Assembly: GCA_021770005.1 (NCBI GenBank)
Contig: JAETRV010000006.1
Span: 4,372 to 68,371 of the forward strand
From: Anaerotruncus sp.
GTDB lineage: Bacteria > Bacillota > Clostridia > Oscillospirales > Ruminococcaceae
Length of the DNA: 64,000 nucleotides
Direction of reading: 5' to 3'
Shown here: positions 27,397 to 60,103 of the stretch, in pieces
How the letters are laid out: each line of letters starts with the position of its first letter
Position numbering within the stretch: position 1 is the first letter of the stretch
Notes under the pieces: model-generated
What the model saw: only the letters and a program-made list of their open reading frames with translations
What the model was told of the DNA's origin: nothing
The model's database searches: none
Position numbers and translations under genes: made by a program

Positions 27397-28341
27397 TCAA
27401 GCGGCGTTTTTCTGCCGCTCCTGTCGCTGCACCCGAACCTGAAGATCCTGGGAGAACATCTGAAGGGTGGAAAATTCGTCGTTCAGGTCGTCCAGCTGGC
27501 GGCGGAGGATACCTTCATAGTGCCGCCGCTTTTCTTCCAGCGCATCAATTTTGGCGATCCAGCGGTTCATCACCGCCGGGCTGGTGATGTTGGTGTCGAT
27601 GAAGTGCTTCACCCGTTCCTGGTAAAGCTCCACCTCCCGGCGCATGGCGATGTAGAACTCCTGGGCCATTTTGTCCCGCTGCTTCTGGTCGTCCAGCACA
27701 TACATACTGTTGACGACAAGCTGGCCGCTGTTCTGGTTGTTGGCGTTCAGGGCCTCGATGAAGTCCTCGAACAGCGTCACCTCCTGCATATGGGTGCGGG
27801 GGACAAAAAACAGCTTGCCGTGGATGGAAATAGGCAGGGCCTCCATCCGGGCAAGGAAAAGGTCGGTCAGACCTTCCACCTGTTTGCGGGTGGCACAGCG
27901 TTTATAAAGCCCGAACAATTCCTCCGCCTTCTGGCAGTAATCCCAGGGGTCCACCAGGCTGTCCACAGCCAGGTTGTCGTACCCCGTCTGCCGGTCCATC
28001 CAGAGGTTGGCCAGCTTGGTGTATTGGTTGGTGGTCTCCCCCAATTCTTCCTTCACCAGCTCCCGGCTGATGATCTGGGGGGATTTTTCGTTGTCCCGGC
28101 AGTAAATTTTGAAGATGCGACTGCCCTGGGTCTTTCGAGCCCGGATGTCCTTGGTGGCGCTGCGGAAGGCGTCCGCTTCACTTAACCGACTTCCTTTGGT
28201 GTATGGCAGATCCACCGACTGACAGAGCTGCTGCAACACCGGCTTTTCGATGAGGATCTTAGCAAGGGAGAAATACAGAATCTTTCCCAACACATCGCTG
28301 CTATCGCCCTTGACTGCCATAAAGTTGCTCATGTTCGTCAT
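27397..28341 (-). CDS. hypothetical protein with a coiled-coil C-terminus
   Basis: 314 aa with protein-like composition. Last gene of operon A. Ends ...QKNAA. Confidence 0.6.
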   Translation of the reverse strand: MTNMSNFMAVKGDSSDVLGKILYFSLAKILIEKPVLQQLCQSVDLPYTKGSRLSEADAFRSATKDIRARKTQGSRIFKIYCRDNEKSPQIISRELVKEELGETTNQYTKLANLWMDRQTGYDNLAVDSLVDPWDYCQKAEELFGLYKRCATRKQVEGLTDLFLARMEALPISIHGKLFFVPRTHMQEVTLFEDFIEALNANNQNSGQLVVNSMYVLDDQKQRDKMAQEFYIAMRREVELYQERVKHFIDTNITSPAVMNRWIAKIDALEEKRRHYEGILRRQLDDLNDEFSTLQMFSQDLQVRVQRQERQKNAA

Positions 28342-28364
28342 AGAGATACGCTCCTTTTCTTTGG

Positions 28365-29441
28365 TTATATAGATGGGATTTGCTCCACTTGTCCGGTGGA
28401 ATAGAGATGCCGGGCGTAGAGGAAATCATCGATCCCCTTAAACCGGGCGTCCCATTCCAGTGGCTCAAACAAAAGTCCGTTCTGGCGGGCGATCTTCTCC
28501 ACCTGGGAGAAGGCGTCCCGCACCTGGGGATTTTCCAGCTTGTCCATATCGTAGGCCCCCACCACCTTTTTCAGCGGCAGGCCGTTCAGTGTTTCGGGGA
28601 GGTACCGCAGGCTGTTGACCCCCGGCACGCAGACAAAGAGGGCGTCCCCCAGAAAATAGCTGGCGACATCCCCTTTGAGCCCGCCCTCGGTGACACAGGC
28701 CACCTTGCTTTGGGAGTCTCCGGTGACATGGACCCAGGTCTGGGCCTTGGTCCCCAAGGTAAAGCCCTTGGCGGGATTGCTGGAGAACCAGCGGTACTTC
28801 ATGCCGCCCTCGGCCCGGTCGGAACGGATCTGCATCCCCTGGATGTACCCGTCCTTGTTGTAGATGGGGATGAGATACCCGCCGTTTCCGGCAAAGGTCC
28901 ACGCCCCGTCCCGGAGGTAGAATCCGGGGACGCCTTTTAGCGGATAGCTGGCCGAGAGCTTGGCCGCGATCCTTTTTCTTGCGGAGTAGGAGGCCGGCAT
29001 CGAGCGATACCGGTTCTCCTTGATCCGCTCCAAGGACAGCCCTCGTTTTAAGAGCTGCTTCTGGTGAAAATCCGAAAGGGTCAGAAGGTCCAGCAGGTCG
29101 TAGTAAACATCATGGCGCAGGGCCAGAGGGGCCAGCTTTGAGGCTGGCTTTTTGGAGGGTGGGATTTTAGCGATTCCTTCCACTTTCTCCACAAGCTGGC
29201 GGTAGGCCGTTTTGTTGTCCACGCCGGTGATTTTGGCATACAGCGTGACGCTGTTGCCGCCTGTCCCGCAGCGGTGGCAGTAACAGAGATCCTCCTCGGT
29301 ATTGAGATACAGATGGTGGCTTTTGTCATCGCAAAAGGGGCACCGGGCCTGTACCTCAATATCATCCAGGGTGGACGGCTTCATCTGGAGGCCGCATAGA
29401 GCGGCAGCCTCCAGAATAGGGATGCGAATATAACCGTCCAT
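28365..29441 (-). CDS. DNA primase-like protein (CHC2 zinc finger + Toprim)
   Basis: 358 aa. CPFCDDKSHHLYLNTEEDLCYCHRCGTGG is a CHC2 finger; VTEGGLKGD and AYDMD are Toprim acidic motifs. AGGAGG RBS. Confidence 0.75.
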   Translation of the reverse strand: MDGYIRIPILEAAALCGLQMKPSTLDDIEVQARCPFCDDKSHHLYLNTEEDLCYCHRCGTGGNSVTLYAKITGVDNKTAYRQLVEKVEGIAKIPPSKKPASKLAPLALRHDVYYDLLDLLTLSDFHQKQLLKRGLSLERIKENRYRSMPASYSARKRIAAKLSASYPLKGVPGFYLRDGAWTFAGNGGYLIPIYNKDGYIQGMQIRSDRAEGGMKYRWFSSNPAKGFTLGTKAQTWVHVTGDSQSKVACVTEGGLKGDVASYFLGDALFVCVPGVNSLRYLPETLNGLPLKKVVGAYDMDKLENPQVRDAFSQVEKIARQNGLLFEPLEWDARFKGIDDFLYARHLYSTGQVEQIPSI

Positions 29442-29461
29442 GAAAAAACCTCCTAATACTC

Positions 29462-29579
29462 ATTTTCGATAAATCGAAAATACGCACGCTTCGCGTGCTG
29501 GTGTCGCTTCGCGCCACCCCGTCTCATCGAAAATCCAATCAAGCAGTTTTCGGTAAATCTGATTTTGATTGGATTTTCG
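29462..29579. repeat. cluster of four inverted repeats with TTTTCGRTAA-type motifs (candidate ori/ssi or RNA element)
   Basis: ATTTTCGAT-aa-ATCGAAAAT at 29462-29481; gcacgc-ttc-gcgtgc at 29484-29498; ggtgtcgc-ttc-gcgccacc at 29500-29518; 15-bp perfect arms cgaaaatccaatcaa (29528-29542) / ttgattggattttcg (29565-29579). Confidence 0.6.
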
Positions 29580-31425
29580 GATAACTGGCTTTTTTGAGGG
29601 GGGCGGGGGCCGACTGGCCGGGGGTCACAACAGAGAGGGGCGCATTGGGCACCACCCTGGCCAGCAAGATCTGGTCCGGCAGCTTGGGCAGTCCGGTGAT
29701 GCTCTCCACATCGTCTATAAAGACGGGGTAGCGCCGCCCGGTGAGCCGCTTCATCAGCTGGGAGACCTCCAGGCCCGCCCGCAGCTTCTCCGAATGGGAA
29801 AGCCGCCGGTAATCCCTGCCGTTAAACTGAAAGCGGAAGGCGCTTTTCAGCTCCCCGGTGGTCTTCACCAGGTCGTAGAGAGAAATTTTCACCTGGGGCA
29901 TGGAGAGGCTGGCAAAGGAAAGCTCGTTTCGCACCGCCAGATAATTGACCGCGGCGCTCATCAGCAGCTTTTTTTGCCGGATCAATTCGTCCACTTCCTT
30001 TTCGCGGGCGTCCAAATCGGGGCCCGGCCGTGCGGCGACCTTCTCCAGAGCGGCCAGTTCTTCCTCCGCCTCCTGTTTCCTGGCGTGGAGCTCGGAAAGC
30101 CGCCGCATCTCCTCATCGTCCAGGTTTCCATAGGTCAGGCTGGCGTTATGCCCTTGGATTTGGCTGTCCAGAGCAGAAAGGGCTTCTCCGTGTTCCCGAA
30201 GCTCCTGTTCCATCTTTGCCCGCTGCCCGTGCAATCGGGCCAGCAGGGCGGCGTTTTTCTCCACATCTTCCTTGTGGAATTGTTCAAAGGTTTCCTGCGC
30301 TTGCTTTTCCAGTGCGGTCAGGTCGTTCAGCTGGGAACGCAGTCCCTGGCCTCGTGAGGTGACTTCCCCCAGCTTTTTGCGAAGATTTTCCTGAGCCTGG
30401 GCTACCGCATCAGCCGGGAGCGGCTGTTTACAGGTGGGGCAGATCGCGCCTGGCTGGGTACGGGAGAGCAGGACGCTTACCTGCTTATGCTCCGCCGCCG
30501 CAGCCTGGAGCGCCGCCTGAGTCTCGGCCAAAGCAGCGGTGAATTTGCCCTCGTAGCTTTTCACCCGCAGCCGTTCCTGGGCCAGCTCCGCCTGGCGCAG
30601 CTGTTCCAGCAGTTCCGGAGGAACCTCCTCCGGCTTGTCCCGAAGCAGCTCCTCGTACCGCTGGTGCAGCCCTTCCAGCTGTTTTTCCAAGGCGGGGCGG
30701 TCGATACCGGCCTCCCTTTTCTGTTCAAGAATGCTGATCTGGGCTTCAAGCTGGGCCAGCTGTTCCTTGCCCTGGGAGATAGCTTCCCTGTTTTCCTTCT
30801 GCTGCCGGAGCAGCTGGACCTTCTGGCCCTCCAGCACCAACTTTCCTTCCTCCAGGTCCCGAATTTCTTCCCGCATGGTTTTCAGAAAGGTCTCCGGCGA
30901 CAGGAGAGAGACATTCTCTAAAAGGGTCTGTTCCGGCTCGGCGAGCCGTTCCAACACCGCCTTGTGGTCGATGAGGGGAAGGTTTTTCTGAAGGAGAGTC
31001 TGTCCATCGTTCCCCAGCGTTTCAATGAAATAGAGGGGATTGAAGATGGAGAGAAATTCGTCCCGTTCCCCGAACATTCTGGCAAGGTCGGCCTGCCGGA
31101 TGGCGTAGCCGTCCCAGGTGACCTGCATCTTGTCCCGTTTCCGGGTGCGGACCAGCTCGTGGGAAACTCCCTTGTCGTCCTTGATCCAGAGGTGAATTTC
31201 AATGTCCGGCAAAGTCTCACAGTAGAGCTTGTCGATATGGGCCCCGCCGAAGCGGTCCTGGCCGGTGACAGCAAAGGCGATGGCATCCGCCACCGAGGTC
31301 TTTCCGGCGTGATTGGCTCCGGTGACAAAGCTCACCGGGCCGAAGTCGAAGGTCTGCTCCTCCCGGAAGCACTTGAAGCCGGAGACGGATAAACTGGTGA
31401 TTTGAAACCCGCTGATTTTTTCCAT
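29539..31425 (-). CDS. Rad50/SbcC-like SMC-family ATPase with coiled coil and CxxC hook
   Basis: ORF 29539..31434; ATG 31425 has AAGGAG 8 nt upstream. Walker A GANHAGKTS, a long heptad-rich middle containing GAICPTCKQPL, and a C-terminal VFIDDVESI (Walker B/D-loop). Confidence 0.7.
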   Translation of the reverse strand: MEKISGFQITSLSVSGFKCFREEQTFDFGPVSFVTGANHAGKTSVADAIAFAVTGQDRFGGAHIDKLYCETLPDIEIHLWIKDDKGVSHELVRTRKRDKMQVTWDGYAIRQADLARMFGERDEFLSIFNPLYFIETLGNDGQTLLQKNLPLIDHKAVLERLAEPEQTLLENVSLLSPETFLKTMREEIRDLEEGKLVLEGQKVQLLRQQKENREAISQGKEQLAQLEAQISILEQKREAGIDRPALEKQLEGLHQRYEELLRDKPEEVPPELLEQLRQAELAQERLRVKSYEGKFTAALAETQAALQAAAAEHKQVSVLLSRTQPGAICPTCKQPLPADAVAQAQENLRKKLGEVTSRGQGLRSQLNDLTALEKQAQETFEQFHKEDVEKNAALLARLHGQRAKMEQELREHGEALSALDSQIQGHNASLTYGNLDDEEMRRLSELHARKQEAEEELAALEKVAARPGPDLDAREKEVDELIRQKKLLMSAAVNYLAVRNELSFASLSMPQVKISLYDLVKTTGELKSAFRFQFNGRDYRRLSHSEKLRAGLEVSQLMKRLTGRRYPVFIDDVESITGLPKLPDQILLARVVPNAPLSVVTPGQSAPAPLKKASYPKIQSKSDLPKTA

Positions 31426-31455
31426 GCTTTTCACTCCTTTGGAAATATCAGGTCC

Positions 31456-32252
31456 TTACGCGGCGATCTCATAGCTTTCCAGCAGATTGACCACCTCGTT
31501 GTTTCTGCCCCGCTGCTGATTCAGCCGCACATTCCGCAGGCAGATGCCCTGGGCCAACTGCCGGTCGTCTCCGGGCCGCAGGCAGACGATCTGCCGCCCC
31601 TGCCGGTCGCAGAGGCTGAGGGCGGTGAGTTTTCCGTCCGGGGAGAGCTTCCTGTCTTGAACGGTGTAATCGAAGGTGAAGGAGCCGGACTTGGCCGGTT
31701 GGAAGGCGGAAGGTGCTGCCGCCGGTCTGGGCGCAGCTGTTCCTTGGGGCGCCGCCTTTTGCGGTGCTGGGGCTTTCCCCTGGAGCATCTGGGTGTACCT
31801 GGCGTCCAGGGACTTGCGTCCTGTCTCGGTGATGTAACAGTTTTTCCCTTCTGTTCCACATCCACCCAGACAGCGCCCAGGGAGTAGAGGTACCGGCCAA
31901 TGCCCCACTGGACAGCGGCCCGCTTGAAGGAATCGGAAAGCCCGCCCTTCACCGGCTCGATGTCGCTGTTCTCGGCCCCGTCGGTCTTGGTGACCCACTC
32001 CTTGCGCTCCTCATCGTAGATGGAGAGGGCACAGAGCTGGGAGCCGTTGCCGATCTGGTGCCAGGGGGCAAAGGTGGTTTTCCAGTGGAAGGGCCCCACC
32101 GTTTCGTCCAGCCGCTTCTGGATGGCCCGGCTGGTGATGAAGGCCACCGCCAGCCCCCGGCTTTTGTCCTGGGTGGTCTGTTGGATGCGCCACTCCACAT
32201 CCTGCGCCTCAAAGGGGGCGGTCAATTTCTGGATCAGTTCCTGCTCATTCAT
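31456..32252 (-). CDS. Rad52/Rad22-type single-strand annealing protein; the reading frame needs a -1 shift at 31848-31842
   Basis: The N-terminal part is ORF 31521..32252 (FEAQDVEWRIQQT...GLSDSFKRAAVQWGIGRYLY). After ...VDVEQKGK the zero frame becomes Arg/Pro/Ser-rich, while the -1 frame (ORF 31456..31998) reads NCYITETGRKSLDARYTQMLQ...NLLESYEIAA. Confidence 0.65.
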
Positions 32253-32265
32253 GGGGAAACTCCTT

Positions 32266-32928
32266 TCATTTCAGAAAATCCTTCAAAGTCCGCCCGCTGG
32301 GGATGAGGACTTTTTCGTAGTAGTGATCCGGTTCCTTATCCTTCATATATTCCAGAAGATCCCGGTGCCCCAGCTTCAGCTGGTTGTTGCGTGAGGTAAA
32401 ATGGTCGTCGTTGTTGGGCATCTCCAGAATCAAGTAGGGCAGAGAGGACAGGGTGTGCAGGCTCTTGCACTCCGGCAAGACATTCCCGCCGGTACACAGG
32501 TGAAAGCCGCTGACATTGGAAAAAGGGTAGTGGAACATGGGGGTGTCCGGCGTCAGCCGGCCCTCAGCCACTACGCCCATCTGGCAGTTTTGCACCCGCA
32601 GCCCCATATGCAGGCCAAAGCGGAAAACCAGCCTTGGTAGGGGAAAATGGGGATACACGGTATTCCCATAGGTGATGTCTGCGTATCGGGCCGGGTGTTC
32701 GATGGAAACGGAACGATAGCCGTTATTTCCGGCGTCAAAGGAGATGCAGCCTGTGGGCAACAGTCCGCTTTGGACCATTTCCCGCTGCAAACTCCCCTTG
32801 ATGCACTCCACCAGGGCGTTATACCCGATGCGCTTGGTGATGATGCTCCCCTCTGAGGAGCGGCTCTCCACCTTGATGGTGGCGGAGCCTGGGTCGATGT
32901 GTAAAATCAGTTCTTGTTCGGGGTTCAT
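32266..32928 (-). CDS. E2-like (UBC-fold-like) protein, putative
   Basis: 220 aa. FHYPFSNVSGFHLCTGGN resembles the HPN...Cys active-site strip of ubiquitin-conjugating enzymes and prokaryotic E2 families. Same operon as E1 and JAB. Confidence 0.45.
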   Translation of the reverse strand: MNPEQELILHIDPGSATIKVESRSSEGSIITKRIGYNALVECIKGSLQREMVQSGLLPTGCISFDAGNNGYRSVSIEHPARYADITYGNTVYPHFPLPRLVFRFGLHMGLRVQNCQMGVVAEGRLTPDTPMFHYPFSNVSGFHLCTGGNVLPECKSLHTLSSLPYLILEMPNNDDHFTSRNNQLKLGHRDLLEYMKDKEPDHYYEKVLIPSGRTLKDFLK

Positions 32929-33539
32929 CAGGCGGCCTCCTTCCAGTTTTCCGGTCTCGGCAACGGCAGGTAGAGGACCTTCGCCTTCCGCTCCCGGTCA
33001 TACTTCCAGATCTCATACCGCAGCTCCTCCACCATATGCTTGTAATAATCGAAGATATGGGCGAGGGCTTTTAACAGAGAAAACTCCTGGTTGAACTCCG
33101 GGGAGAGGTAAAGGGTGATCCCGCTGGCCCACCGGTGGTTGACTTTCGTGCTGTAACGGTAGGTGTAATAATAGGAATATAGGCTGTCCAGCTGTTCCTC
33201 CAGCTCCGTCTTTGCCTGTTCCATATAAGGATTTCGCCGCAGGGGGACTCCTCTTTGTCTGGACCAATCCCGGCACAGGCGGTAAAAATCCATCATGCTC
33301 CGGTGGCTGAAAAACCAGCAGGTATCCATATAGGGTCCAACCTCTCGGCATTTCCAGAAGTCACAGACAGTGGTCACTCCCTCGATGATGTAGGAGTAAT
33401 AATCCTCCGCCACGATTGGCAATGCGCCGATCCCTTCCAGGTAATCCTCTTCCCTTCCGGCGTCGCTGAGGACCTTGCCGACCAGGATGGGGATGGGGAT
33501 AAGGCTCAGCTCAAAATTCTCATACTCGTAATCGTCCAT
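32928..33539 (-). CDS. hypothetical protein (aromatic-rich, 203 aa)
   Basis: GAAGGGGG RBS. Its stop overlaps the start of the E2-like gene (TGATG). Ends ...NWKEAA. Confidence 0.55.
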   Translation of the reverse strand: MDDYEYENFELSLIPIPILVGKVLSDAGREEDYLEGIGALPIVAEDYYSYIIEGVTTVCDFWKCREVGPYMDTCWFFSHRSMMDFYRLCRDWSRQRGVPLRRNPYMEQAKTELEEQLDSLYSYYYTYRYSTKVNHRWASGITLYLSPEFNQEFSLLKALAHIFDYYKHMVEELRYEIWKYDRERKAKVLYLPLPRPENWKEAA

Positions 33540-33552
33540 CCCACAGCCCCCT

Positions 33553-33858
33553 TCAGCAAAAGGCCCGCCGGAGGCTTTGGGAAATCGACCGACTGCAAAG
33601 CTGCCGGTTCATTTCCCATAAATAGAAGCGGCGATGGTAGTGGATCTTCGCCCCGTCCAGCAGGTCGTATAGGTCATCCAGGGTGAACCGGGAGTAGTCG
33701 ATTTGCTTGGGGATCAGCGGCTCTCCGTTCAAAATGGGGGAACAGACAGCTTCCATTAGGTAAGGGTCTATCTCTGCAAACTCGTTTTCGGCGGTATCCT
33801 CTGAGGTATCTTCCAGCAGCTGCCGGAAGGTCTGGGAATTTAATTCATACATTTTCAT
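33553..33858 (-). CDS. hypothetical acidic protein (101 aa)
   Basis: AAGGAG RBS directly after the methyltransferase stop. MKMYELNSQTFRQLLEDTSEDTAENEFAEIDPYL... Confidence 0.5.
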   Translation of the reverse strand: MKMYELNSQTFRQLLEDTSEDTAENEFAEIDPYLMEAVCSPILNGEPLIPKQIDYSRFTLDDLYDLLDGAKIHYHRRFYLWEMNRQLCSRSISQSLRRAFC

Positions 33859-33864
33859 TCTCCT

Positions 33865-35283
33865 TTATGCCAGCGCCTTGAAGCCGGCGGCGGTCAATAT
33901 GTGGAACACCATCTTGTTGGTCTGGGTCTCGGTGATCTCGGTCACCAGTGGTTTCCCTGTCAGGGCGTCTGTGCTGGTGACATGAGAATCGGTGAGCTGC
34001 TCCTTGACAATCCGCCCCTTGATGATATGGGGGCTGTCGCAGGGCATGAGGCCGTTAATGAGGCCGGAGCCGCCGATGAGTCCCACCTGTCCCACTGTCA
34101 GGGGGAGGGGCGGGCGCTTTTCTTTGCTATCCAGAGGACTTTGTTCCAATAGTTTTTTGAAGCTGTCCGATAGTTTTTTGAAGCTGTCCGAGGCGGCAAG
34201 CTGCCTTGCCAGCTCCGGGACATTGAACACCGCCCCCTTGAAGATGGGAACCTTCTCCGGGTGGGCGGGCAGCGGGTAGCTTTTCTCCGGCAGCTGGGTC
34301 AGCTCCGGAATTTTGTCCGCATCCTGCACCTGCCGGAGCAGGCCAGGGACCTCCTTGGAGCCATTGTCCCGTGGCTTGTGGATGCCCAGCACCGCCACCT
34401 GGCGGAACCGCTGGAACTCCGTGCCGCAGAATTTGTACACCGAGAGCCGCTCAAAGTTGTCGCAGAGGATGCGGGCGATGTCGGCGGTCAGCCGGTAATA
34501 GGGGATGATGTAGACCAGCAGGCCGCCCACCATGAGGTGGGAAAAGCTGTTTACCAGGAACCGCTTTTCATCCCGGCCGGTCTGGCCGTTCTTCCCCAGC
34601 ACCGAGAGGTAGGGGGGATTGAGGAACAGGGCGTGAAACGCCTCGTGACTGATCCGGGCGCTGAAATAGCTGCCGATGGCCACCCGGTGGAGCCTGGTCT
34701 GGGCCTCCTCCGCCCGGCGTTCGTCCAGCTCTACCCCGTAGGCGTAGCAGTTGTTGCCGGTGGCCATGAGGCGCAGGGCGATGCCGTCCCCGCAGCAGGG
34801 GTCCAGAAGGTTGGTGGTCACCCCGTCAGGAAATTCGATCCCCTTGGTGATGAGCTTCACATGGTCCGGGTCGGTGGGGTAAAATCCCATCCTCACATGG
34901 TTCATCAGCCGCCCGATGATGGCGGCGCTGGCGGTCTTATCCCCGGTATCCGGCATCCCCTTCACAAAGGCGGAGAGGGTGTCGCAAAGCCGGGAGTAGT
35001 CCGGGGTGGAAAGCTGGAACTTCGCCACCGCTTTCCCCAGGCCAAGGGCCGCAGCCGCCAGGTCGGGCAGGGAGAGGCGGCAGTCCTCCAAAGCGGCCAG
35101 CAGGCAGGCTTGATGGGAGCGCAGCGTCTGATACCAGTCCTTGGCCCCGTTGGGGTCTTTTTTCAGCTGTTTCTCAATCTTTTTCCTGGCGGCGGGCATT
35201 TCCTCCTTTGCCAGCAGGATGACCCGCTTGGACTGTTCCAGCCGGTCTACGGCGTATAGCTGCTGTTCGTTGACTTCTTCCAT
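33865..35283 (-). CDS. SAM-dependent N6-adenine (NPPY) DNA methyltransferase-like protein with a long C-terminal extension
   Basis: 472 aa. Motif I is LLDPCCGDGIAL and motif IV is LFLNPPY. Contains a 21-bp tandem duplication (SDSFKKL x2). Confidence 0.7.
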   Translation of the reverse strand: MEEVNEQQLYAVDRLEQSKRVILLAKEEMPAARKKIEKQLKKDPNGAKDWYQTLRSHQACLLAALEDCRLSLPDLAAAALGLGKAVAKFQLSTPDYSRLCDTLSAFVKGMPDTGDKTASAAIIGRLMNHVRMGFYPTDPDHVKLITKGIEFPDGVTTNLLDPCCGDGIALRLMATGNNCYAYGVELDERRAEEAQTRLHRVAIGSYFSARISHEAFHALFLNPPYLSVLGKNGQTGRDEKRFLVNSFSHLMVGGLLVYIIPYYRLTADIARILCDNFERLSVYKFCGTEFQRFRQVAVLGIHKPRDNGSKEVPGLLRQVQDADKIPELTQLPEKSYPLPAHPEKVPIFKGAVFNVPELARQLAASDSFKKLSDSFKKLLEQSPLDSKEKRPPLPLTVGQVGLIGGSGLINGLMPCDSPHIIKGRIVKEQLTDSHVTSTDALTGKPLVTEITETQTNKMVFHILTAAGFKALA

Positions 35284-35365
35284 CGTTAGAAACCTCCTAT
35301 TACAAGGAGGGGCAGGATCAGATGACCCAGCCCCTCCGATTTTTGCCCCAAATGGGTGTTTTCTT

Positions 35366-35974
35366 TTATGCCGCCAGCTCCTGAACAGGCTGGGCCTCCT
35401 CCTGGATGCGGGAAACGATGTAGCCCTTTTCCCGCAGGACTTCCAGAATGGCAGATACCAGCTCGCTATCCGGTTCCGGCTTTGGCGCAGGCTCCTTTGG
35501 CAAGGAAAGCACCGGCTTTTTGGCCGCTTTTTTCTTCGGCTTTATCATCCTGCGGAAAGGCGCAGTCAACAGCCTTTTCAGCCCGGACAGCAGCTTATTG
35601 GGGAGATACCGGCGCAGGCTCACTACCTCCTGGGCGGTGCAACTGCCGATGTTGGAGCGGTTCACCACCAGCCGCTTAGCCGAGACCTCCAGCGCCTGGA
35701 CAAAGTTCTTGGCGCAGAGAGTTCCTCTGGCCTTGCAGGTGGTGGCGTACAGTTCCCCAAAGGCCCCGCCGCCGATCTCCTCCTCCCGGATAAAGCCGGT
35801 ACGGAGGTTGACGGTATCCGCCTCCAGGCGGCGGGCGTCTACGATTCCCCGGCCCAGAAGCCGCCGAACCTTGAGGGTCCCGTTTACCTTCAGAACACCG
35901 TTGACAACCAGAGTATCCGTGGAAAGGATGCTGTAAAGGGCTGTCTTCCCCTTTTCGATGGTAATGGTTTTCAT
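35366..35974 (-). CDS. hypothetical protein: N-terminal beta-rich repeat region (bactofilin-like impression only), Lys/Pro linker, small C-terminal domain
   Basis: 202 aa. ATGA overlap with the E1 stop. LVVNGVLKVNGTLKVRRLLGRGIVDARRLEADTVNL... Ends ...VQELAA. Confidence 0.5.
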   Translation of the reverse strand: MKTITIEKGKTALYSILSTDTLVVNGVLKVNGTLKVRRLLGRGIVDARRLEADTVNLRTGFIREEEIGGGAFGELYATTCKARGTLCAKNFVQALEVSAKRLVVNRSNIGSCTAQEVVSLRRYLPNKLLSGLKRLLTAPFRRMIKPKKKAAKKPVLSLPKEPAPKPEPDSELVSAILEVLREKGYIVSRIQEEAQPVQELAA

Positions 35975-36744
35975 CTCCTTTTTTCTTTAATCGTAGGCCG
36001 CATATTGACGCTGGTGGTGGAAAAGGAGACCGCTTGGACATTGGTTTCCCCTCTCACCAGGATGTTGTAGACCAGAGCTACCACTGCGCAGGCCGCCGTG
36101 ATGTTGGCGGTAATGGCCTGTGGCGCCGAGACTGAAGCCTCGGCACAGGAAAGCTCGGTGGGGAACTTGTCGGTTCCGTCTAAGATTTCGGGGTACAGGG
36201 CCCCAACCGGCTTGTGGCAGGTGCGCCCGCCGCTGCGGACGCCGCACACCACCTGGCCGGTGTACTCCCCGTTGCCGCTGTCGATGTACACCAGGTCTTT
36301 CATCTGATAGAACACCTTATGGCAAAGGCTCCGGGACTTGTTGTTGTCCACCGCGCCGATGAGGATGACCAGCTCGGTGAGGGTTTTGTCGTGCCATTTC
36401 CCCTCTGAATAATACTGGCCGGTTTTCCAGATACGGGGCGTCACCAGCTTTTTCAATTCCTCTTCACTCTCAATGTAAGCGGGGATGTACTCGGTTTCCA
36501 GGCCAAAGACGGAGGAATACCGCTCGGCCAAAACCTTGGCTTTGTTTTCCCCTAAGTCCGCCTCAATGAAGTTCTGGCGGACCAGGTTCTTTTTCTCCAC
36601 CAGGTCGCCGTCCACAATGAGAAAACGGCAGTTTTCCTGGTCCAGCGCATAGAGCAGGCGGTAAAGGTGGGGGGCGATATGGCCTCCGGTGCCCCCTGCC
36701 CCCAGCATCACGATCTTGACCGGGCGATTTCGGGAAAATCTCAT
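35971..36744 (-). CDS. ThiF/MoeB/E1-like adenylyltransferase
   Basis: 257 aa starting from ATG 36744. MRFSRNRPVKIVMLGAGGTGGHIAPHLY...FLIVDGDLVEKKNLVRQNF carries the GxGxxG and D.D..E..NL.RQ motifs. As sequenced it is also the C-terminal part of ORF 35971..38175. Confidence 0.8.
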   Translation of the reverse strand: MRFSRNRPVKIVMLGAGGTGGHIAPHLYRLLYALDQENCRFLIVDGDLVEKKNLVRQNFIEADLGENKAKVLAERYSSVFGLETEYIPAYIESEEELKKLVTPRIWKTGQYYSEGKWHDKTLTELVILIGAVDNNKSRSLCHKVFYQMKDLVYIDSGNGEYTGQVVCGVRSGGRTCHKPVGALYPEILDGTDKFPTELSCAEASVSAPQAITANITAACAVVALVYNILVRGETNVQAVSFSTTSVNMRPTIKEKRR

Positions 36745-38133
36745 GCCGCCATCGCCCCTTTCAGGGTGAAACCGTCTTCCTCCCCCGTGATGGGGAAGGA
36801 GTCTTCCAGCAGTTGTATCCGGTTGCTCCACCAGTCGGGGAATGCCTTTGGCACCCCCCTCCAGCACATCGCCGGGGTGGATGGGCAGGAAAGTCCCGCC
36901 GTTGCAGATCCGGGCGGATACCTCCGGGAAGTATTGATCCAGCCGGCCCATGACGAGGTACAGGCAGTTTCCCTTCTCGTCGGCGTCGTCAATGCTGGAA
37001 AACTGGGCTGCCATGGAGTTATGCGAGTGTATATCGGCGTAGTAGATCAGCCCGTCCTCCTTCTCCGGGTCGATGGGGATGTCCGCAAAGATGCGGGCCT
37101 TGCTCACCTTCTGGTGGGGGATGTCCAGCAAAAATCTTTCCTCCAGCCGGTTCCAGTAGACCCGGACCAGGGCTTCGGTCTCGGCCCCGTCCCGCATACA
37201 GGAGCGGAAGAAGCCAATGACCTGCTGCACCAGCTCAAAGGGGATGAGGGGAAGGTTGGAATAAAAGCCCTCCCGAACTTCGCCCAATTCTGGGATTTCT
37301 TTTGGTCTGGTGATGAAGCGGCCGGACTCCATACAGCGAATTTCATACACATGGCCATCCCTGGCCGGGACAAAGTTGATGACCTTGGGGGCCTTCTCCA
37401 TCTCCTCCAGGGAGGAAAAAAGACCCTTATACGAGGCGATGCCCTTGGACTGGGCGGCGATGTGGGGGCGCACCTTGCAGGTGAAGTCCCTATCCTTGGC
37501 CTTTTTCAGCATATCCCGGAAGCCTTCGGACTTTTCTATCTCCGCCTTCATGTCGTGGATAACGGAGTCTTTGGGCTTGGGGATGGTTTTGGTGATCTTC
37601 CCGTACTCCATCGTCCAGGAAACACGCTTGCCATCCTCCAATTCGGGGAAGTCCGTCTCCTTCTCCTTGCGGAGTTGCTCAAAGGTCTTTTTCGAGTCGG
37701 TGATCTCCTCCGTCACGCCGCTAAACTGGAAAACCGGCGGCTTTTGGAGCAGTTCCCCGGCAAGGTCCTCGGTAATCTTTTCCTCCACCTGGCGCATGGC
37801 TGCCTCAAAGGGGTTTGCGGGCGCAGCAGACGGTTTGGCTGCCGCCTTGGGAGCCGCAGGCTTTTTTTCTGGGGCAGCGGCCGGTTGGGGCGGGGCTTCG
37901 GGTTCTTTTTCTTCTGGGACATTTGCATCCTCCTTCTTTTCTTTGGGCTCCGGCGTTTCGGCAGGGGCCTCTTTGGGCTGGGCGGTTTCTGTGGTTTCCG
38001 GAGCTTTTTCTTCCGGGGGCTGGGGCGCCGGTTCCTTCTCCGCGAACAGGGCGTCAAAATCCTCCCTGCCGCTGCCAAGGTCCAGGCTGCCCTCTCCTCC
38101 GAAAATCGCCATGAAATCCATGTTGTCACTCAT
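36741..38133 (-). CDS. JAB/MPN (JAMM) metallopeptidase with a long N-terminal region. The native C-terminus is in another frame: one extra G in a G6 run fuses it to E1 as sequenced.
   Basis: ATG 38133 has AAGGAGGA upstream. JAMM motif HSHNSMAAQFSSID (HxHx7Sx2D) at about 37029-36988. Deleting one G at 36854-36859 gives ...HPGDVLEG-VPKAFPDWWSNRIQLLEDSFPITGEEDGFTLKGAMAA-stop, and that stop forms an ATGA overlap with the E1 start. Confidence 0.7.
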
Positions 38134-38162
38134 TGTGTTTTCCTCCTTCTTTGTTTTGGGAC

Positions 38163-38205
38163 AAAAAAAGACCACAGCCGGGCCCTTTTGGGCTGGCTAT
38201 GGTCT
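38163..38205 (-). terminator. intrinsic terminator at the 3' end of leader copy A, about 30 nt before the JAB start
   Basis: Minus-strand RNA reads agaccauagccagccc-aaaa-gggcccggcuguggucu followed by UUUUUUU. Confidence 0.7.
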
Positions 38206-38376
38206 TTCTGTCTGGTCGTATTTCGGTTTTCGTGTTGGACGGATTACGGCGGGGCGCACTGGCCCCTGGGGTCTTTCGCTCCTACCTTGGGCGGCACAAG
38301 GGGCCGCGCCACACTCCTACCTGAAATACAGGTCTATTTTAGCATGAGGAGGAGAGGGTGTACACTTGCACTTTTG
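38163..38376 (-). promoter_or_regulatory. promoter + ~165-nt structured leader + terminator cassette, copy A
   Basis: Extended -10 TGcTAAAAT (TAAAAT at 38341-38336). Conserved core contains two AGGUAGGAG repeats. Roughly 85-90% identical by manual alignment to 60061-60268. Confidence 0.65.
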
Positions 38377-41960: not shown

Positions 41961-41974
41961 AGGAGGAAATTTTT

Positions 41975-50017: not shown

Positions 50018-50335
50018 TCAGACCAAATCTCTAAACACAAGACGGTTGGCGCAGCTCTCGATGGTATCCCGCACATCCTCCATGTAGCGGGTCTCCAGCT
50101 TCTGCCACTCCCGGTAAATATCCGCCAGAGGACAGGGAGAATCCAACAGGGCGCTGCCCTGCTCCACCGTAACATCCCGTTCCTCCAGCGCCATGAGAAT
50201 ATCCTCTCGGACACTGTACTCATAGGCGTGGTCTAAAATCTCCATGGGCGACAAGCCCAAAAGCCAGTCTCGGTAGGTATCCTGCTCCGCTTTCATCTTC
50301 CGGTACAAAATCGTAGTGAGTTCTTCCGCTGTCAT
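50018..50335 (-). CDS. hypothetical protein (resembles DUF3848-type proteins of Clostridia mobile elements)
   Basis: 105 aa. MTAEELTTILYRKMKAEQDTYRDWLLGLSPMEILDHAYEYSVREDILMAL. Confidence 0.5.
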   Translation of the reverse strand: MTAEELTTILYRKMKAEQDTYRDWLLGLSPMEILDHAYEYSVREDILMALEERDVTVEQGSALLDSPCPLADIYREWQKLETRYMEDVRDTIESCANRLVFRDLV

Positions 50336-50350
50336 ATCATCAATACCTCC

Positions 50351-51943
50351 TTAAATCCTGCCGGAAAGCAGCCGCTCGGCCACCTGCTGGCCGCCCAGCT
50401 CGCTGATCCGGTAGATCTCATCGCAGAAGGGCGCCAGGGTAAACTTCATCCCAGGGGTGGCCTGGTCCATCAGGATGCCGGTGATGGTGAATCCCATCGC
50501 CGCCTTTTTCTTCTGAAGCTCCCGGACAAAGGGCTCGGACACCCTGCATTCCCCATCGGTGATGAATACCACATCCGCCTGCCGGAACTCCCCGGTCTCC
50601 ATGAGCCGGAAAGCCTCCCGCAAGGAGGTCTCGTAGTCGGTGCCGCCGTCCAGGAAGGTGGAGGCGGAGGTCAACACATCCTCCGGGGCATACTGGCCGG
50701 GACGAAAAATATCTGTCCTGAAATCATCTTCATCGGAGAAGTGGATAAGGGCAAAATTCCGCCGATGGAATCCGGTAACATCCAGCAGGGCATAGGCCAC
50801 AGCCTTGCCCCAGGCGGCGTTGTCCCCGCCATGCTGCATGGTGGAGCCAGATTCATCCAGACAGACGATCTTATCCCCCTGGCCCTTGCAGACCTTTTCC
50901 CGTCGCTGGTGCTGGAGCAGCGCCCTTCGCTGGTATTTCCGCAGAAAGAGGGGGATGGTCTCCGGGGCGGCCAGCGGCCCGAACTCGGAGGAAAGCACGC
51001 TCCGCAGCCGGTTGCCCAGCTCCAGGCCGTATTTTTCGCCCCTGCCGTAGACGGTGGCGTTTTTGCGCTTCATTCGCATCATCTCCCGCAGGCGGCCCAG
51101 GTATTGGGAAATCTTCACCAGCTGTTCGTTCTGCCGGACCTTTTGGAGCAGCTGCCCGTTGAGGGCATCCGGCCGCATATTTCCGGGGTCGGTCCCCCAG
51201 GACAAAAGAATCTGGGCCGTTTCCTCTGCTTTCTCCATAGCGGCCTGTTCAGCGGCGGACAGCACAGCCTCCACCTGTTCCTGGTGATGGAGAAGGTTGT
51301 CCTCCACCATCTTCTCCAAAGCGGCCAGCTGCCGCACCTTGCTTTCGGCCCGGTTTGCCAGCCGGAGAATTTTTTTCTCCAGCTTGGAGTCCGGTTGGGA
51401 GGGGTCGTGGCGATCCAAGAGCTGTCGTAGCTGTTCCAGCCGTTCCTCCTGTTTGACAGTCTCCTTTTCCAGCACCGAAAGGCTCTGCTTCGGCCCGTTG
51501 GCGGCGTCCATCAGCCGGTCCAGGTTTTCGCAGGCCTGGCGCATGAACTCCTCCGCCGCATCGTAAGCGGGCAGCTCGTTTCCCTCGCAGACGGCCCTCA
51601 TGGCTGGGTAGACGGGGGACTGCATCAGCTGGCGCAGGATAGGACGGTGGAACTTTTTTGCCATGGGGGAAAGCTGCTCCTCCGGTTTCTCCCGAACATT
51701 CATGCTGAACAGGCTTTGGAACACATCACGGGAAAGGCCCCCGATACCGGGCAGCTTCCCCTGAGCCTGCTTTTCCAGCTTGCTCAACATATCGTCCCTG
51801 CCCTCTCGGACCTCCCGGTAAATTTCGTCCTCGATCCTCCTGGAGTAGAGGGTCCGGTTCTCCTTCCCGAACACCGTTTTCAGGCGGTCGCAAAAGAAGG
51901 CCGATTTCATCAGCCTGCCGAAATCAATAAAAGCGTCTCTCAT
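50351..51943 (-). CDS. von Willebrand factor A (VWA) domain protein, CoxE/NorD-like partner of the MoxR ATPase
   Basis: 530 aa. MIDAS motif VCLDESGST...DVVFITDGEC in the C-terminal third; long helical N-terminal region. Confidence 0.7.
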   Translation of the reverse strand: MRDAFIDFGRLMKSAFFCDRLKTVFGKENRTLYSRRIEDEIYREVREGRDDMLSKLEKQAQGKLPGIGGLSRDVFQSLFSMNVREKPEEQLSPMAKKFHRPILRQLMQSPVYPAMRAVCEGNELPAYDAAEEFMRQACENLDRLMDAANGPKQSLSVLEKETVKQEERLEQLRQLLDRHDPSQPDSKLEKKILRLANRAESKVRQLAALEKMVEDNLLHHQEQVEAVLSAAEQAAMEKAEETAQILLSWGTDPGNMRPDALNGQLLQKVRQNEQLVKISQYLGRLREMMRMKRKNATVYGRGEKYGLELGNRLRSVLSSEFGPLAAPETIPLFLRKYQRRALLQHQRREKVCKGQGDKIVCLDESGSTMQHGGDNAAWGKAVAYALLDVTGFHRRNFALIHFSDEDDFRTDIFRPGQYAPEDVLTSASTFLDGGTDYETSLREAFRLMETGEFRQADVVFITDGECRVSEPFVRELQKKKAAMGFTITGILMDQATPGMKFTLAPFCDEIYRISELGGQQVAERLLSGRI

Positions 51944-52014
51944 AAGTTGTCCTTTCCGGCGTCCAAAATGGGGAGAGCCGAAGCCCTCCCCGTGGTAACG
52001 CCACAGTTTATTTT

Positions 52015-52530
52015 TTAGAACGGCAGGTCTCCGGTCTCCTCTACTTCCTCGAAGGAAGAGGAAAAGCTGGATACCAGACCATCAAAGCCCGCAAAAGCGG
52101 CACTGAAGTCGGCGGCGGCCGGTGCAGCTGCGGGAGCCGCGGCCGGGGCTTGTGCCGGGGCCGCAGGCTGGGGCAGATAAGAGGGCCTTTCCGCTGTCCC
52201 GTCTGCCGGGACGGTTTCGATGGGGGCAAAGCCCACCCGTTCGGCCAGGATACGCACCCCCTCATGCTTGCTGCCATTTTTGTCCGTCCAGGGGGCGGCC
52301 TGCAAGCTGCCGGTGACTTCGATGAGCTTTCCCTTCTGGAAGTTGTTGGCGATAAACTCCGCCGTGGAACGCCACGCCTCCACATTAAAGAAGTCGGCCT
52401 TTTTCTCCTTGCCCTTGCCGGCGTACCGGTCACAGGCGATGCGAATGCCCACATGGAATACCCCCGCCGGGGTCTGGCGCAGCTCCGGGTCTTTGGTGAG
52501 CCTGCCGGTGATCACGATTGCGTTTGCCAT
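52015..52530 (-). CDS. ssb: single-stranded DNA-binding protein
   Basis: 171 aa. OB fold MANAIVITGRLTKDPELRQTPAGV..., an Ala/Pro-rich linker, and an acidic tail ending DLPF. Confidence 0.9.
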   Translation of the reverse strand: MANAIVITGRLTKDPELRQTPAGVFHVGIRIACDRYAGKGKEKKADFFNVEAWRSTAEFIANNFQKGKLIEVTGSLQAAPWTDKNGSKHEGVRILAERVGFAPIETVPADGTAERPSYLPQPAAPAQAPAAAPAAAPAAADFSAAFAGFDGLVSSFSSSFEEVEETGDLPF

Positions 52531-52872
52531 TTATGGTTCCTCCTGTTCTTTTAGGGCGGGATTTTCCCTGCCCTGCTTGTCGTAGATATTCCAGAGGATG
52601 TGCCGGAGCGTTTCCCGCCAATCCCGCCGTTCGTACCGAAACCAACGGCAAAGGGTCAAAAGAGGATGGGGAAACCGGTTCAGATACAGCAGATGCTCCT
52701 CATTCCAATCCCCGATACCGGAAAGCCGGCGGTAGAGGGTCTCACAGACAGCGATCTCTTCTGACCTGGCAAGAAACGCCTGGGGCGTAAGCCCGGAAAT
52801 CCTCTGACGAAAGGTGGCGTAGTCCAAGTCCAGCTTGTCCCGAAGCCCCTGTGGAAGATCATTTCTGCCCAT
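52531..52872 (-). CDS. hypothetical protein (113 aa)
   Basis: ORF 52531..52971 trimmed to ATG 52872 (GGAAGGTGG upstream). Confidence 0.45.
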   Translation of the reverse strand: MGRNDLPQGLRDKLDLDYATFRQRISGLTPQAFLARSEEIAVCETLYRRLSGIGDWNEEHLLYLNRFPHPLLTLCRWFRYERRDWRETLRHILWNIYDKQGRENPALKEQEEP

Positions 52873-53062
52873 TTGCAGACCACCTTCCCAGCCCCTTGCG
52901 AAAGCCCGCAAGGAAATTCTCTGCCAGCTTGCCGAGGAAAACGGCCAGTCCACCCAGCAGCCACAGGCCAATGAGAACCTGCGCCACCCTGGAGCGCAGC
53001 AGGCAGAGCAGCAGGATAACCAGGGTGATGCCGATGAGTACCGAAAGCAGCTTGTGTTTCAT
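52859..53062 (-). CDS. small membrane protein (67 aa, two TM segments)
   Basis: MKHKLLSVLIGITLVILLLCLL...VLIGLWLLGGLAVFLG. Fills the gap between the MoxR gene and the downstream gene. Confidence 0.45.
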   Translation of the reverse strand: MKHKLLSVLIGITLVILLLCLLRSRVAQVLIGLWLLGGLAVFLGKLAENFLAGFRKGLGRWSANGQK

Positions 53063-53078
53063 AACTTAGTCCTTTCCT

Positions 53079-54458: not shown

Positions 54459-54766
54459 TTTCCATTCCTCCTAACATACCAGCCCATGACATCACAGATC
54501 TTCCGGCTCTCCTCGATGGCGGCGGCGTCAGACCTGTCCAGGTCCGTCTCCTCGGCCAAGCGGGTAATCAGCAGCGCGGCGATGCGGTAAAGGCCGGTGT
54601 TACTTTCCTCCTCCGAGCCTGCCAGCAGGCAGTCTACAAACCGGTTATAGTTTTCCGGCTGGCTGGCCATAGAACCGGCGAATTTCTTCAGTTCCATGGC
54701 AAGGTTCCCGGCGGAGATAGTACGCTCCGCCCGCTGGGGTCTCAAAACTCTTGTTGTCTCGCGCAT
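54452..54766 (-). CDS. hypothetical protein (104 aa)
   Basis: Tightly packed in the operon: it overlaps the MoxR start by 7 nt and begins 1 nt after the stop of the upstream gene. Confidence 0.45.
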   Translation of the reverse strand: MRETTRVLRPQRAERTISAGNLAMELKKFAGSMASQPENYNRFVDCLLAGSEEESNTGLYRIAALLITRLAEETDLDRSDAAAIEESRKICDVMGWYVRRNGKC

Positions 54767-54767
54767 A

Positions 54768-55145
54768 TTACGCAGCCTCCTTTTTCATTTCCTCGTTGCA
54801 GATCTCAATGACCTCCTGGCACTGGGCCATGGTAAACTGGGCGATATGGGTGCGGTAGTCGGGAAGCTTCATCTTTTTTGCCAGCCAGTGGTAGGCTTCG
54901 CTCCGTTTTAGCCCCTTTTTTCTCCACAGGGGGTCAAAAGCGTTGTGGGCTTCCCGGCGCTTGCTTCTCAGGGCGGCGTTGGCCAGCGTCCCAAGGGGCT
55001 TTTTTGTCCCATCGTGGACGCCCACATAGGCCCCGCAGTTGGTGCAGTAGTAGATGTTCCCATAGCTTTTGCCGTGGTAGACGATAGCGGAATCGGTGAA
55101 GATCACCTTGCCGCCGCAGTAATCGCAGATAGTGGGGATTTTCAT
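54768..55145 (-). CDS. zinc-ribbon protein
   Basis: ORF 54768..55172 trimmed to ATG 55145 (GGAGG upstream). CDYCGG...CTNCGAY has two CxxC pairs. Ends ...KKEAA. Confidence 0.55.
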   Translation of the reverse strand: MKIPTICDYCGGKVIFTDSAIVYHGKSYGNIYYCTNCGAYVGVHDGTKKPLGTLANAALRSKRREAHNAFDPLWRKKGLKRSEAYHWLAKKMKLPDYRTHIAQFTMAQCQEVIEICNEEMKKEAA

Positions 55146-55161
55146 AGAGATGACCTCCTTC

Positions 55162-55758: not shown

Positions 55759-55770
55759 GACATTTTCCTC

Positions 55771-56958: not shown

Positions 56959-56976
56959 AGATGCCTCCTTTTGGTG

Positions 56977-60024: not shown

Positions 60025-60060
60025 TTACAATGGTCTTCCTCCTTTTTCTTAAATTCAAAC

Positions 60061-60103
60061 AAGAAAAGACCACAGCCAGGCCCTTGCGGGTTGGCTATGG
60101 TCT
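60061..60103 (-). terminator. intrinsic terminator at the 3' end of leader copy B, about 40 nt before the SNF2 start
   Basis: Minus-strand RNA reads agaccauagccaaccc-gcaa-gggccuggcuguggucu followed by UUUUCUUGUUUG. Confidence 0.65.

Follow-up and report, generated by a model that had tools for sequence, protein, structure and literature searches.

The question raised by this locus is why one and the same non-coding block of about 210 bp stands directly in front of two different long operons of a mobile element. The element lies in a 64,000-nt stretch of Anaerotruncus sp. DNA (assembly GCA_021770005.1, contig JAETRV010000006.1, positions 4,372 to 68,371; hereafter the window), and both copies of the block, here called cassette copies A and B, are read on the minus strand, where copy A precedes an operon headed by a JAB+ThiF gene and copy B an operon headed by an SNF2-like helicase gene. 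The cassette is very probably a cis-regulatory unit of leader and terminator, conserved and dedicated to this pair of operons, and, judged by sequence comparison, it is an undescribed, widespread leader RNA family of gut Oscillospiraceae with a strict genomic association.

An earlier reading of the DNA (the sequence-only reading) had described two copies in the same orientation, 21.9 kb apart and 85-90% identical, with similarity ending at a promoter on one side and a terminator on the other. The MAFFT alignment of the two regions (38163-38375 and 60061-60268) bears this out, with about 90% identity and almost no gaps over a near-identical block that starts at AAAAGTGCAAGTGTA (38375 and 60268) and stops at the end of the U-run (38163 and 60061), while the flanks beyond promoter and terminator are unrelated on either side. 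A repeat search of the window returned the same regions as two direct repeats, D1 (38233-38375 and 60126-60268; 143 nt, 92%) and D5 (38161-38216 and 60059-60114; 56 nt, 88%), whose copies are 21,893-21,898 nt apart, and of the five occurrences of the nonamer AGGTAGGAG in the window (0.31 expected), four are inside the two cassette copies. The extended -10 and the two repeats per copy that had been proposed were also recovered, the promoter scan giving TGcTAAAAT and each copy holding two AGGUAGGAG units. This predicted promoter is of the SigA/sigma-70 type, with TGnTAnAAT, which is kept in relatives, and a -35-like hexamer 17 nt upstream (TGTACA-17-TAAAAT plus the upstream TG at 38364-38336 in copy A; TGTAAA as the -35 in copy B). 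Transcription would start at the G of GUAUUU, 7 nt past the -10, and these independently predicted starts, 38329 and 60222, agree with the approximate positions given before. Downstream of the -10, both copies have the same order of parts: 7 nt, GUAUUU(C/U)AGGU, the two units around a GC-rich segment, the hairpin GGGGC-CAGUGC-GCCCC, a complement of the 5' end (ACCGAAAUAC in copy A, ACCUGAAUAC in copy B), an A-rich linker, and a GC-rich hairpin with a U-run, followed by the ribosome-binding site (RBS) and ATG at 29 nt (copy A) or 36 nt (copy B). The predicted RNA folds are considerably more stable than dinucleotide shuffles (-75.8 kcal/mol and z -6.6 for copy A; -68.4 kcal/mol and z -4.6 for copy B), with a terminator stem of 13-15 bp; a strong stem-loop with a U-run had been claimed for each copy, and the terminator is indeed present in both, but the U-run of copy B is interrupted (TTTTCTT). 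When a covariance model trained solely on relatives outside the window was run against the window, the two cassettes were the only leader matches (E 5e-7 and 7e-6), the weaker matches at 24605-24741 and 26180-26266 being terminator hairpins only.

The leader had not been recognised as a riboswitch or leader class in the sequence-only reading, and no Rfam 15 family matches it. At gathering thresholds the window yielded only two tRNAs, at E<=10 nothing relevant was found for copy A or for one leader of the common form described below, and among 12 related loci the only matches were a group II intron and a pemK motif located elsewhere in the loci (a group II intron domain at 6272-6348 of locus L019 and a pemK RNA motif at 7015-7072 of L082). 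Neither blastn against plasmid and phage collections nor a search of the literature on the leader motif sequences returned a match or anything relevant. Relatives were found in two ways. Look-ups that started from the proteins, and were hence unbiased by any RNA pattern, found the cassette immediately upstream of the gene in five of five cases (JAB homologues at 77, 44, 43 and 39% protein identity and a helicase homologue at 52%); homologous elements, whose lack of the cassette would have counted against a regulatory unit, thus carry it. Pattern scans returned 89 stretches from bacteria represented by one genome per species and at least 120 from metagenomes, amounting to at least 135 distinct relatives, mostly from Oscillospiraceae metagenome-assembled genomes (MAGs) and gut metagenomes. 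Nearly all real matches in the one-genome-per-species set belong to Oscillospiraceae (Oscillibacter, Flintibacter, Pseudoflavonifractor, Lawsonibacter, Angelakisella and Colidextribacter), and a few further matches come from Lachnospiraceae MAGs. At least four copies (L039, L069, L092 and L094) are in the cultured strain Flintibacter muris DSM 110149. Among the matches listed, the downstream gene is of JAB type (81) or SNF2 type (99) in about 180 of about 189 readable instances (approximately 95%), the few exceptions appear to be truncated or disrupted, no solitary cassette without a linked gene was found, and the start codon lies 27-31 nt past the U-run in 147 of 153 cases, which leaves no room for a second promoter. 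Three of the loci (L050, L135 and L169, identical after the leader) have a leader of the window's type followed, right after the RBS, by unrelated AT-rich sequence, which may be an insertion disrupting the first gene. Locus L019 has two leaders (600-770 and 2807-2975) 2.2 kb apart, the first preceding an SNF2 gene without its first ~340 codons, with a nucleotidyltransferase/HepT pair between them.

Comparison of the relatives separates what is constant in the leader from what varies. The window copies represent a minority form (type I; nine distinct sequences) with the order unit, GC-rich segment, unit, whereas in the common form (type II) this section is replaced by a 15-nt unit, UAGGGCGGAGUAAGU, repeated in tandem one to four times and ending in a final AGGGAGGAA(Y)GG or AGGG(C/U)GGAUG. 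Across the family the units are AGGUAGGAG, AGGGCGGAG or end in ...GGAUG, and this purine unit is the best-conserved internal sequence, present 2-5 times per leader and predicted to be mostly unpaired; in locus L067, Tandem Repeats Finder reported a period of 15 with 3.6 copies and 97% matches. Both types share the 5' GUAUUYYAGG, the helices P1 and P2, the A-rich linker and the terminator. P1 closes the domain (UUUCAGG/CCUGGAA in type II; 9-10 bp in type I), and P2 has the family-wide form GGGGCG-nAGUn-CGCCCC. Type II leaders stack P2 over P3 (CGGC/GCCG or UGG/CCR) and P4, the latter using the GG or GCGG of the last unit, and one subtype (L063 and L086) carries an extra insertion of about 50 nt after P2. 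For the GC-rich segment of type I, the nine sequences are too alike to choose between a local hairpin and long-range pairing.

Several measures indicate that the structure is conserved in the RNA. In a MAFFT alignment of 59 type II sequences, 86% of the cells at paired positions hold standard pairs, compared with 39-47% when the partners are slid by 1-3 columns; realignment of 77 leaders to the covariance model gave 88% compared with 29-50%, figures to be read knowing that such an alignment favours its own structure and that the sequences are mutually related. Changes on both sides were found in 19 of 35 pairs (10.7 +/- 1.5 in column shuffles), and none of 500 shuffles reached the observed value on any measure; structure-preserving substitutions, on which the proposal of a leader had been made to depend, are therefore present. 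The terminator, P3 and P4 show compensatory change most strongly (for example GCGGAU/GUCCGC versus GUGGAU/GUCCAC), and the variation in P1 and P2 is mostly from G-C or A-U to G.U. Across the pairs, G.U or U.G cells far outnumber A.C or C.A cells (421 versus 80), which indicates that the sense strand folds, rather than its complement or the duplex DNA. The intrinsic terminator, with a 13-bp stem and U7, shows changes on both sides in 9 of 13 pairs and has 92-97% of its cells paired. Upstream of the RNA, nearly all relatives have a TGnTA(A/C)AAT-like -10 at 7 nt before the G of GUAUU, and the conserved RNA hence begins at the predicted start. Many type II members have a weak -35, and a perfect inverted repeat of 6-9 bp overlaps the -35 region, at -52 to -36, in about two thirds of the type II promoters (e.g., L025, L011 and L032). 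Its arms differ in at least six variants, all of them palindromic (GGTGGA/TCCACC, GTTGGA/TCCAAC, GTTGA/TCAAC, GGTGA/TCACC, CTTGCG/CGCAAG and CTTGAT/ATCAAG), so that the repeat looks like a candidate operator with diversified specificity, or possibly a hairpin; the type I copies of the window have only its right half, GCAAGTGTACA.

It is possible, with somewhat less than even confidence, that the cassette is a transcription gate that is closed by default and is opened by antitermination mediated by a factor or by the RNA itself. RNA polymerase would start at the G of GUAUUU from the extended -10 promoter, and the first ~110 nt would fold into a domain closed by P1, in which the 5' end pairs with a CCUGAAAUAC-like sequence, and would display 2-5 largely single-stranded purine units (AGGnnGGAG) together with the GC hairpin and its nAGUn loop. 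About 20 nt further on, the very stable terminator would halt the polymerase and leave an RNA of ~165 nt, and the operon would be expressed only upon suppression of termination, with the leader serving in cis as the site at which this happens; a sequence-specific factor would load on the purine units and the hairpin, or the folded RNA would act alone, either way making the polymerase resistant to the terminator. The same leader on both operons would allow one signal to activate both, while unmodified polymerases would be stopped, for instance those reading through from cargo or host genes if the 5' extension of their transcripts spoils the leader fold. The terminator is the default fold, its pairs having a mean ensemble probability of about 0.98 that is unchanged when the units, or the units and the 5' end, are constrained to be unavailable. 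Read-through would therefore need something beyond thermodynamic refolding, and expression would depend on read-through because the first gene is cut off from its promoter by a good terminator and the space left is too short for another promoter. A bound factor is favoured by three traits of the units, namely that no other internal sequence is as well conserved, that most of their length is predicted to be unpaired and that their copy number varies; a multivalent binding platform would account for the variable 15-nt tandem array better than a fixed tertiary fold would. More doubtful is the wider proposal that the cassette represents a new structural class of antitermination RNA, in which an array of 2-5 purine units of 15 nt recruits an element or host factor or the polymerase and switches on establishment and DNA-processing operons from two identical gates in a highly abundant family of conjugative elements from gut Oscillospiraceae, and in which the ~165-nt RNA could also titrate the factor in trans.

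Several observations weigh against such a gate. Antitermination, the start site and the ~165-nt RNA are predictions from sequence, and the conservation of nt 1-16 is partly a matter of ascertainment, as both pattern scans were anchored there (the protein-anchored loci show the same 5' end as the pattern-found relatives). No strong same-strand intrinsic terminators were found within either window operon, so that processivity is not obviously needed (in the relatives, locus L233 has one doubtful hairpin inside the operon), and the variable number of repeats is unlike put or EAR. Among the small conserved proteins of the operons, searches of Pfam, PHROGs and PDB sequences gave no RNA-binding or antiterminator match. 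The 198-aa protein of operon B is sigma-H-like in the PDB sequence search and more likely drives other promoters. Always next to the gene for this sigma-like protein in the SNF2 operon is that of a DUF3268 protein (54768-55172, minus strand), whose AlphaFold model (predicted local distance difference test score 94) shows a zinc ribbon and a three-helix bundle with four invariant or near-invariant cysteines; it could be an anti-sigma or other polymerase-binding factor, and its model found no Foldseek match in the PDB at E<0.3.

There are several other potential explanations for a leader of this kind. The terminator could be controlled by a switch in structure, in which an ACCG... segment, lying 5' of the P1 3' strand and also serving as the 3' strand of P4, has a choice of two partners, the last purine unit (G(G/A)GG/GCGG) and the 3' arm of the terminator (CGGU...), and in which a protein or a 30S subunit on the units frees this segment to form an antiterminator. 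The alternative helix does have 72.6% standard pairs in register (24-44% when slid), with the four pairs of its core retained in 51-75 of the 76 sequences, and P4 has compensatory changes; in some subtypes, the upstream segment ACCGCAAC can match the 3' arm wobble-free, whereas the 5' arm of the terminator itself requires wobbles to do so. However, covariation in the alternative helix does not rise above shuffles, in pairs or in types, the duplex energies are only about one standard deviation better than shuffled (cognate -10.9 versus non-cognate -10.1 kcal/mol), and a helix of 4-8 bp cannot rival one of 13 bp, the terminator still forming with a probability of ~0.98 at equilibrium when the repeats are blocked. 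Support for a switch by structure alone is thus weak, and we regard such a switch as unlikely. The efficient terminator and the seemingly strong promoter make a short RNA the expected main product, and a stable ~165-nt small RNA, a 5' stabiliser with Shine-Dalgarno-like units, or both could therefore be the purpose of the cassette, with the RNA acting as a sponge for a GGA/GGAG-binding protein or for 30S subunits and the operon being fed by constitutive leakage through the terminator. Such a stabiliser is known from cryIIIA of B. thuringiensis (STAB-SD), and the 5' end of the leader is sequestered in P1, the number of units varies, and the units hold GGAG or GGAGG with no consistent start codon after them. 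This explanation also seems unlikely, as the cassette is never solitary among the matches listed and its position and spacing relative to the two gene families are fixed, as no target of the leader RNA and no complement to it was found within the window, and as most units (GGCGGAG) would match the anti-Shine-Dalgarno sequence poorly.

The purine units might instead act as DNA, either as direct-repeat operators for a roadblock repressor or as a Q-like loading site near a promoter-proximal pause, with the terminated RNA as a by-product. A 15-bp direct repeat of variable copy number that begins at +8 would suit this, as would the covarying inverted repeat of the type II promoters, which looks operator-like, and a constitutive promoter with a ~165-nt terminated transcript ahead of a long operon resembles PR'-tR' of phage lambda. 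We consider it rather improbable, given that the last unit is itself part of RNA helices that show compensatory changes (those of P4 given above), that the strong asymmetry of G.U over A.C points to selection on the transcript, that P1, P2 and P3 would be left without a role, and that copies of the window type have just two units, 35 nt apart. A small-molecule riboswitch controlling the terminator would likewise take the form of a structured leader and an intrinsic terminator ahead of an operon, but unit numbers that vary from 2 to 5, a subtype with 50-nt insertions, two quite different architectures, the lack of a supported alternative for the expression platform, and downstream genes for mobile-element DNA transactions rather than metabolism make this highly improbable.

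Further candidates were considered and rejected. When the sequences were read by eye, no conserved open reading frame (ORF) with an RBS emerged that could encode a leader peptide; start codons after the array occur only in some subtypes and in differing frames, and none occurs in type I. A promoter spacer complementary to the purine units, which would mask them in read-through RNA from upstream, was seen by eye in three subtypes, but within a subtype this spacer is free to vary and the units are constant. A G-quadruplex was dismissed since type I has runs of GG only, the units are not complementary to the 5' arm of the terminator and hence are no antiterminator partner for it (z +0.25), and the -35/-10 region has, by eye only, no complementary partner in the cassette that would suggest a single-stranded-DNA (Frpo-like) promoter. 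The terminus of an insertion sequence or of the element was rejected too, both copies being internal to the element and constantly upstream of the same two gene families; the sequence-only reading had held the repeat to be a regulatory unit and not coding sequence or an element end, and in keeping with this there is no conserved leader ORF.

The features of both copies and the operons that they precede are collected in Table 1.

Table 1. Parts of cassette copies A and B and the operons behind them (window coordinates)
Feature	Position	Strand	Basis or content
Copy A, upstream conservation edge AAAAGTGCAAGTGTA including -35-like TGTACA (38364-38359)	38359..38375	-	alignment, promoter scan
Copy A, extended -10 TGcTAAAAT	38336..38344	-	promoter scan
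Copy A, predicted RNA 5' end (G 38329) and P1 5' strand GUAUUUCAGGU	38319..38329	-	start predicted
Copy A, purine unit 1, AGGUAGGAG	38314..38322	-	
Copy A, GC-rich inter-unit segment GGCGCGGC...GCCGCCC; local hairpin or long-range pairing with CCGUCCAACAC	38289..38310	-	fold
Copy A, purine unit 2, AGGUAGGAG	38279..38287	-	
Copy A, hairpin P2, GGGGC-CAGUGC-GCCCC, family-wide, loop nAGUn	38251..38266	-	fold, covariation
Copy A, P1 3' strand ACCGAAAUAC, closes leader domain	38218..38227	-	fold
Copy A, A-rich linker	38206..38217	-	
Copy A, intrinsic terminator, stem AGACCAUAGCC.../...GGCUGUGGUCU, then U7	38163..38205	-	fold, covariation
Copy A, RBS GAAGGAGG and ATG (38133-38131) of JAB+ThiF gene	38131..38149	-	
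Copy B, upstream conservation edge and -35-like TGTAAA	60252..60268	-	alignment
Copy B, extended -10 TGcTAAAAT	60229..60237	-	
Copy B, predicted RNA 5' end (G 60222) and P1 5' strand GUAUUUUAGGU	60212..60222	-	fold
Copy B, unit 1 (60215-60207), GC-rich segment (60203-60182), unit 2 (60180-60172)	60172..60215	-	
Copy B, hairpin P2	60144..60159	-	fold
Copy B, P1 3' strand ACCUGAAUAC	60115..60124	-	fold
Copy B, intrinsic terminator, U-run UUUUCUU	60061..60103	-	fold
Copy B, RBS AAAGGAGG and ATG (60024-60022) of SNF2-like helicase gene	60022..60045	-	
Operon A, behind copy A	27397..38133	-	JAB+ThiF(E1), 202-aa protein, DUF6094 methyltransferase, E2_D, Rad52-like, SbcC-like ATPase, primase-like, DUF6744
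Operon A end, terminator	27315-27293		
Operon B, behind copy B	50018..60024	-	SNF2-like helicase, DnaN-like, sigma-H-like factor, DUF3268 zinc-finger protein, MoxR, SSB, VWA, DUF3848
Operon B end, terminator	49997-49953		

As the sequence-only reading had it, each copy lies directly upstream of a tightly packed row of genes on the minus strand, one from JAB/E1 to 27.4 kb and the other from SNF2 to 50.0 kb; the rows end at 27397 and 50018, each closed by a strong terminator. The first ORF of operon A encodes 720 aa (JAB+ThiF) and that of operon B a helicase of 1015 aa (ResIII/Helicase_C). The 720-aa ORF (35971-38133, minus strand) joins JAB and ThiF/E1, which are two genes in every homologous locus (~460 aa and ~257 aa, overlapping by 1-4 nt), and its junction appears to be out of frame (..GAKGIPRLVEQPDTTAGRLLPHHGGGRRFHPERGDGGM..), which points to a genuine fusion or to a frameshift close to where the JAB gene ends. 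Upstream of the cassettes are cargo genes (amidase, MarR, MatE, aldo-keto reductases and a DXP-synthase-like gene), among which paralogous aldo-keto-reductase/4Fe-4S genes, at 41961-43075 and 61617-62728 on the plus strand, share 73-78% DNA identity and precede one cassette each; their spacing of 19,653 nt is unlike that of the cassettes.

The element block adjoins tRNA-Met (22603-22679), with a tyrosine-recombinase gene at 23303-24160, and this region is likely to be the left boundary of the element, the right boundary lying beyond the window; in the 285-aa recombinase ORF, an N-terminal SAM-like domain was the sole domain detected. Immediately upstream of the SNF2 cassette on a related contig are genes for a type IV coupling protein, a VirB4-like ATPase and RepA_N. 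The tRNA-Met/recombinase junction together with these genes argues that the element is an integrative conjugative element (ICE). It does not appear to be a typical phage, since the full leader pattern matched a single contig among 2.9 million in IMG/VR, where a scan with an 18-mer gave chance matches only. Other repeats were noted in the window. Outside the element, two neighbouring inverted-repeat pairs of 76 and 70 nt (7741-7901 and 18630-18788), with 84-88% complementarity at a distance of 10.7-10.9 kb, stand on either side of TRAP-transporter, tRNA-Thr and PBP genes, and a 62-nt direct repeat (7921-7982 and 14943-15004) holds a hairpin. Two terminator-like hairpins (26351-26395 and 27274-27318), 76% identical and of the form AAAAGAAAACCGGC.GGGG...CCC..GC.GGAAA, stand at the ends of adjoining transcription units.

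Oscillospiraceae count among the major gut bacteria of humans and animals, are difficult to work with, and harbour abundant conjugative elements; at least 120 metagenome stretches matched the leader pattern. The cassette is a compact, sharply defined control point, easy to synthesise, for DNA-processing and establishment genes that occurs twice per element; it offers a handle on element activation and is usable as a practical marker for this family of conjugative elements in metagenomes. With it, the few antitermination or attenuation RNAs known from Gram-positive mobile elements gain a candidate family whose repeat-based architecture is unusual.

The type of control proposed here, a promoter-proximal leader and terminator gate in a mobile element, is already known. 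The nutL/nutR sites of lambda, which act with N, and the putL/putR sites of HK022 are sites of processive antitermination. As in those systems, two copies of a short RNA element are found, each behind the promoter of one of two long mobile-element operons and ahead of a terminator, and the cassette's P2, a GC-rich hairpin with a 5-nt purine-rich loop, is of the size of boxB in lambda. Unlike nut and put, the cassette has variable tandem purine units, has its terminator ahead of any gene, and belongs to a conjugative element, not a phage, in a Firmicutes host, and it has no sequence or Rfam similarity to them. Lambda also provides PR'-qut-tR', where a strong promoter gives a terminated transcript of less than 200 nt (6S RNA), a long operon is expressed on antitermination, and Q loads on DNA. 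The succession of promoter, short terminated transcript and long operon is alike, but the cassette transcript has a conserved, covarying structure, and no Q-like protein was found by PDB sequence search or Foldseek. With the class of processive antitermination RNAs (put, EAR, canT and conAn2), which act in cis to carry RNA polymerase through their own and through heterologous terminators, the cassette agrees in arrangement only (promoter-proximal position, two copies, terminator downstream), antitermination by the cassette being our inference; such RNAs bypass several terminators within their operons, of which the window operons show no strong ones.

Closer in host and element type are the cis-acting antitermination RNAs that head operons of Gram-positive conjugative elements, canT of Tn916 (PMC11658703) and conAn2 of pLS20 (PMC8191782). 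In Tn916, canT/T1 is likewise a cis RNA at the head of the operon for DNA processing and conjugation of a Gram-positive ICE, with insulating terminators and a specific promoter coupled to read-through (PMC11658703); canT is 341-452 nt long, has no defined motif and occurs once per element (PMC11658703), whereas the cassette has a domain of ~110 nt, two copies and a terminator 20 nt downstream and belongs to another element family. The pLS20 conAn1/conAn2 system and the zipper-type attenuator cATT also share a leader and an intrinsic terminator before the first gene of a long Gram-positive conjugative operon, with an RNA part in antitermination (PMC8191782, PMC13401043). However, conAn2 (260-600 nt) follows the conAn1 gene (PMC8191782), while here the leader precedes the first genes, which are of JAB or SNF2 type in ~95% of cases, the small ORFs not having been profile-compared with ConAn1; and cATT needs a 5' segment complementary to the terminator (PMC13401043), a complementarity that is not supported for the cassette. 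The repeat-binding RNA attenuation proteins of Firmicutes (TRAP, HutP) and GGA-motif binding of the CsrA type likewise involve several short purine motifs, variable in number, in a leader upstream of a terminator. The unit of the cassette is 15 nt long (UAGGGCGGAGUAAGU), unlike NAG triplets with 2-4 nt spacers, and the operons have no gene for such a protein and no supported alternative between antiterminator and terminator. The tandem-unit platform is thus without a counterpart among described antitermination RNAs, and the triplet sites of TRAP and HutP are the nearest to it in spirit.

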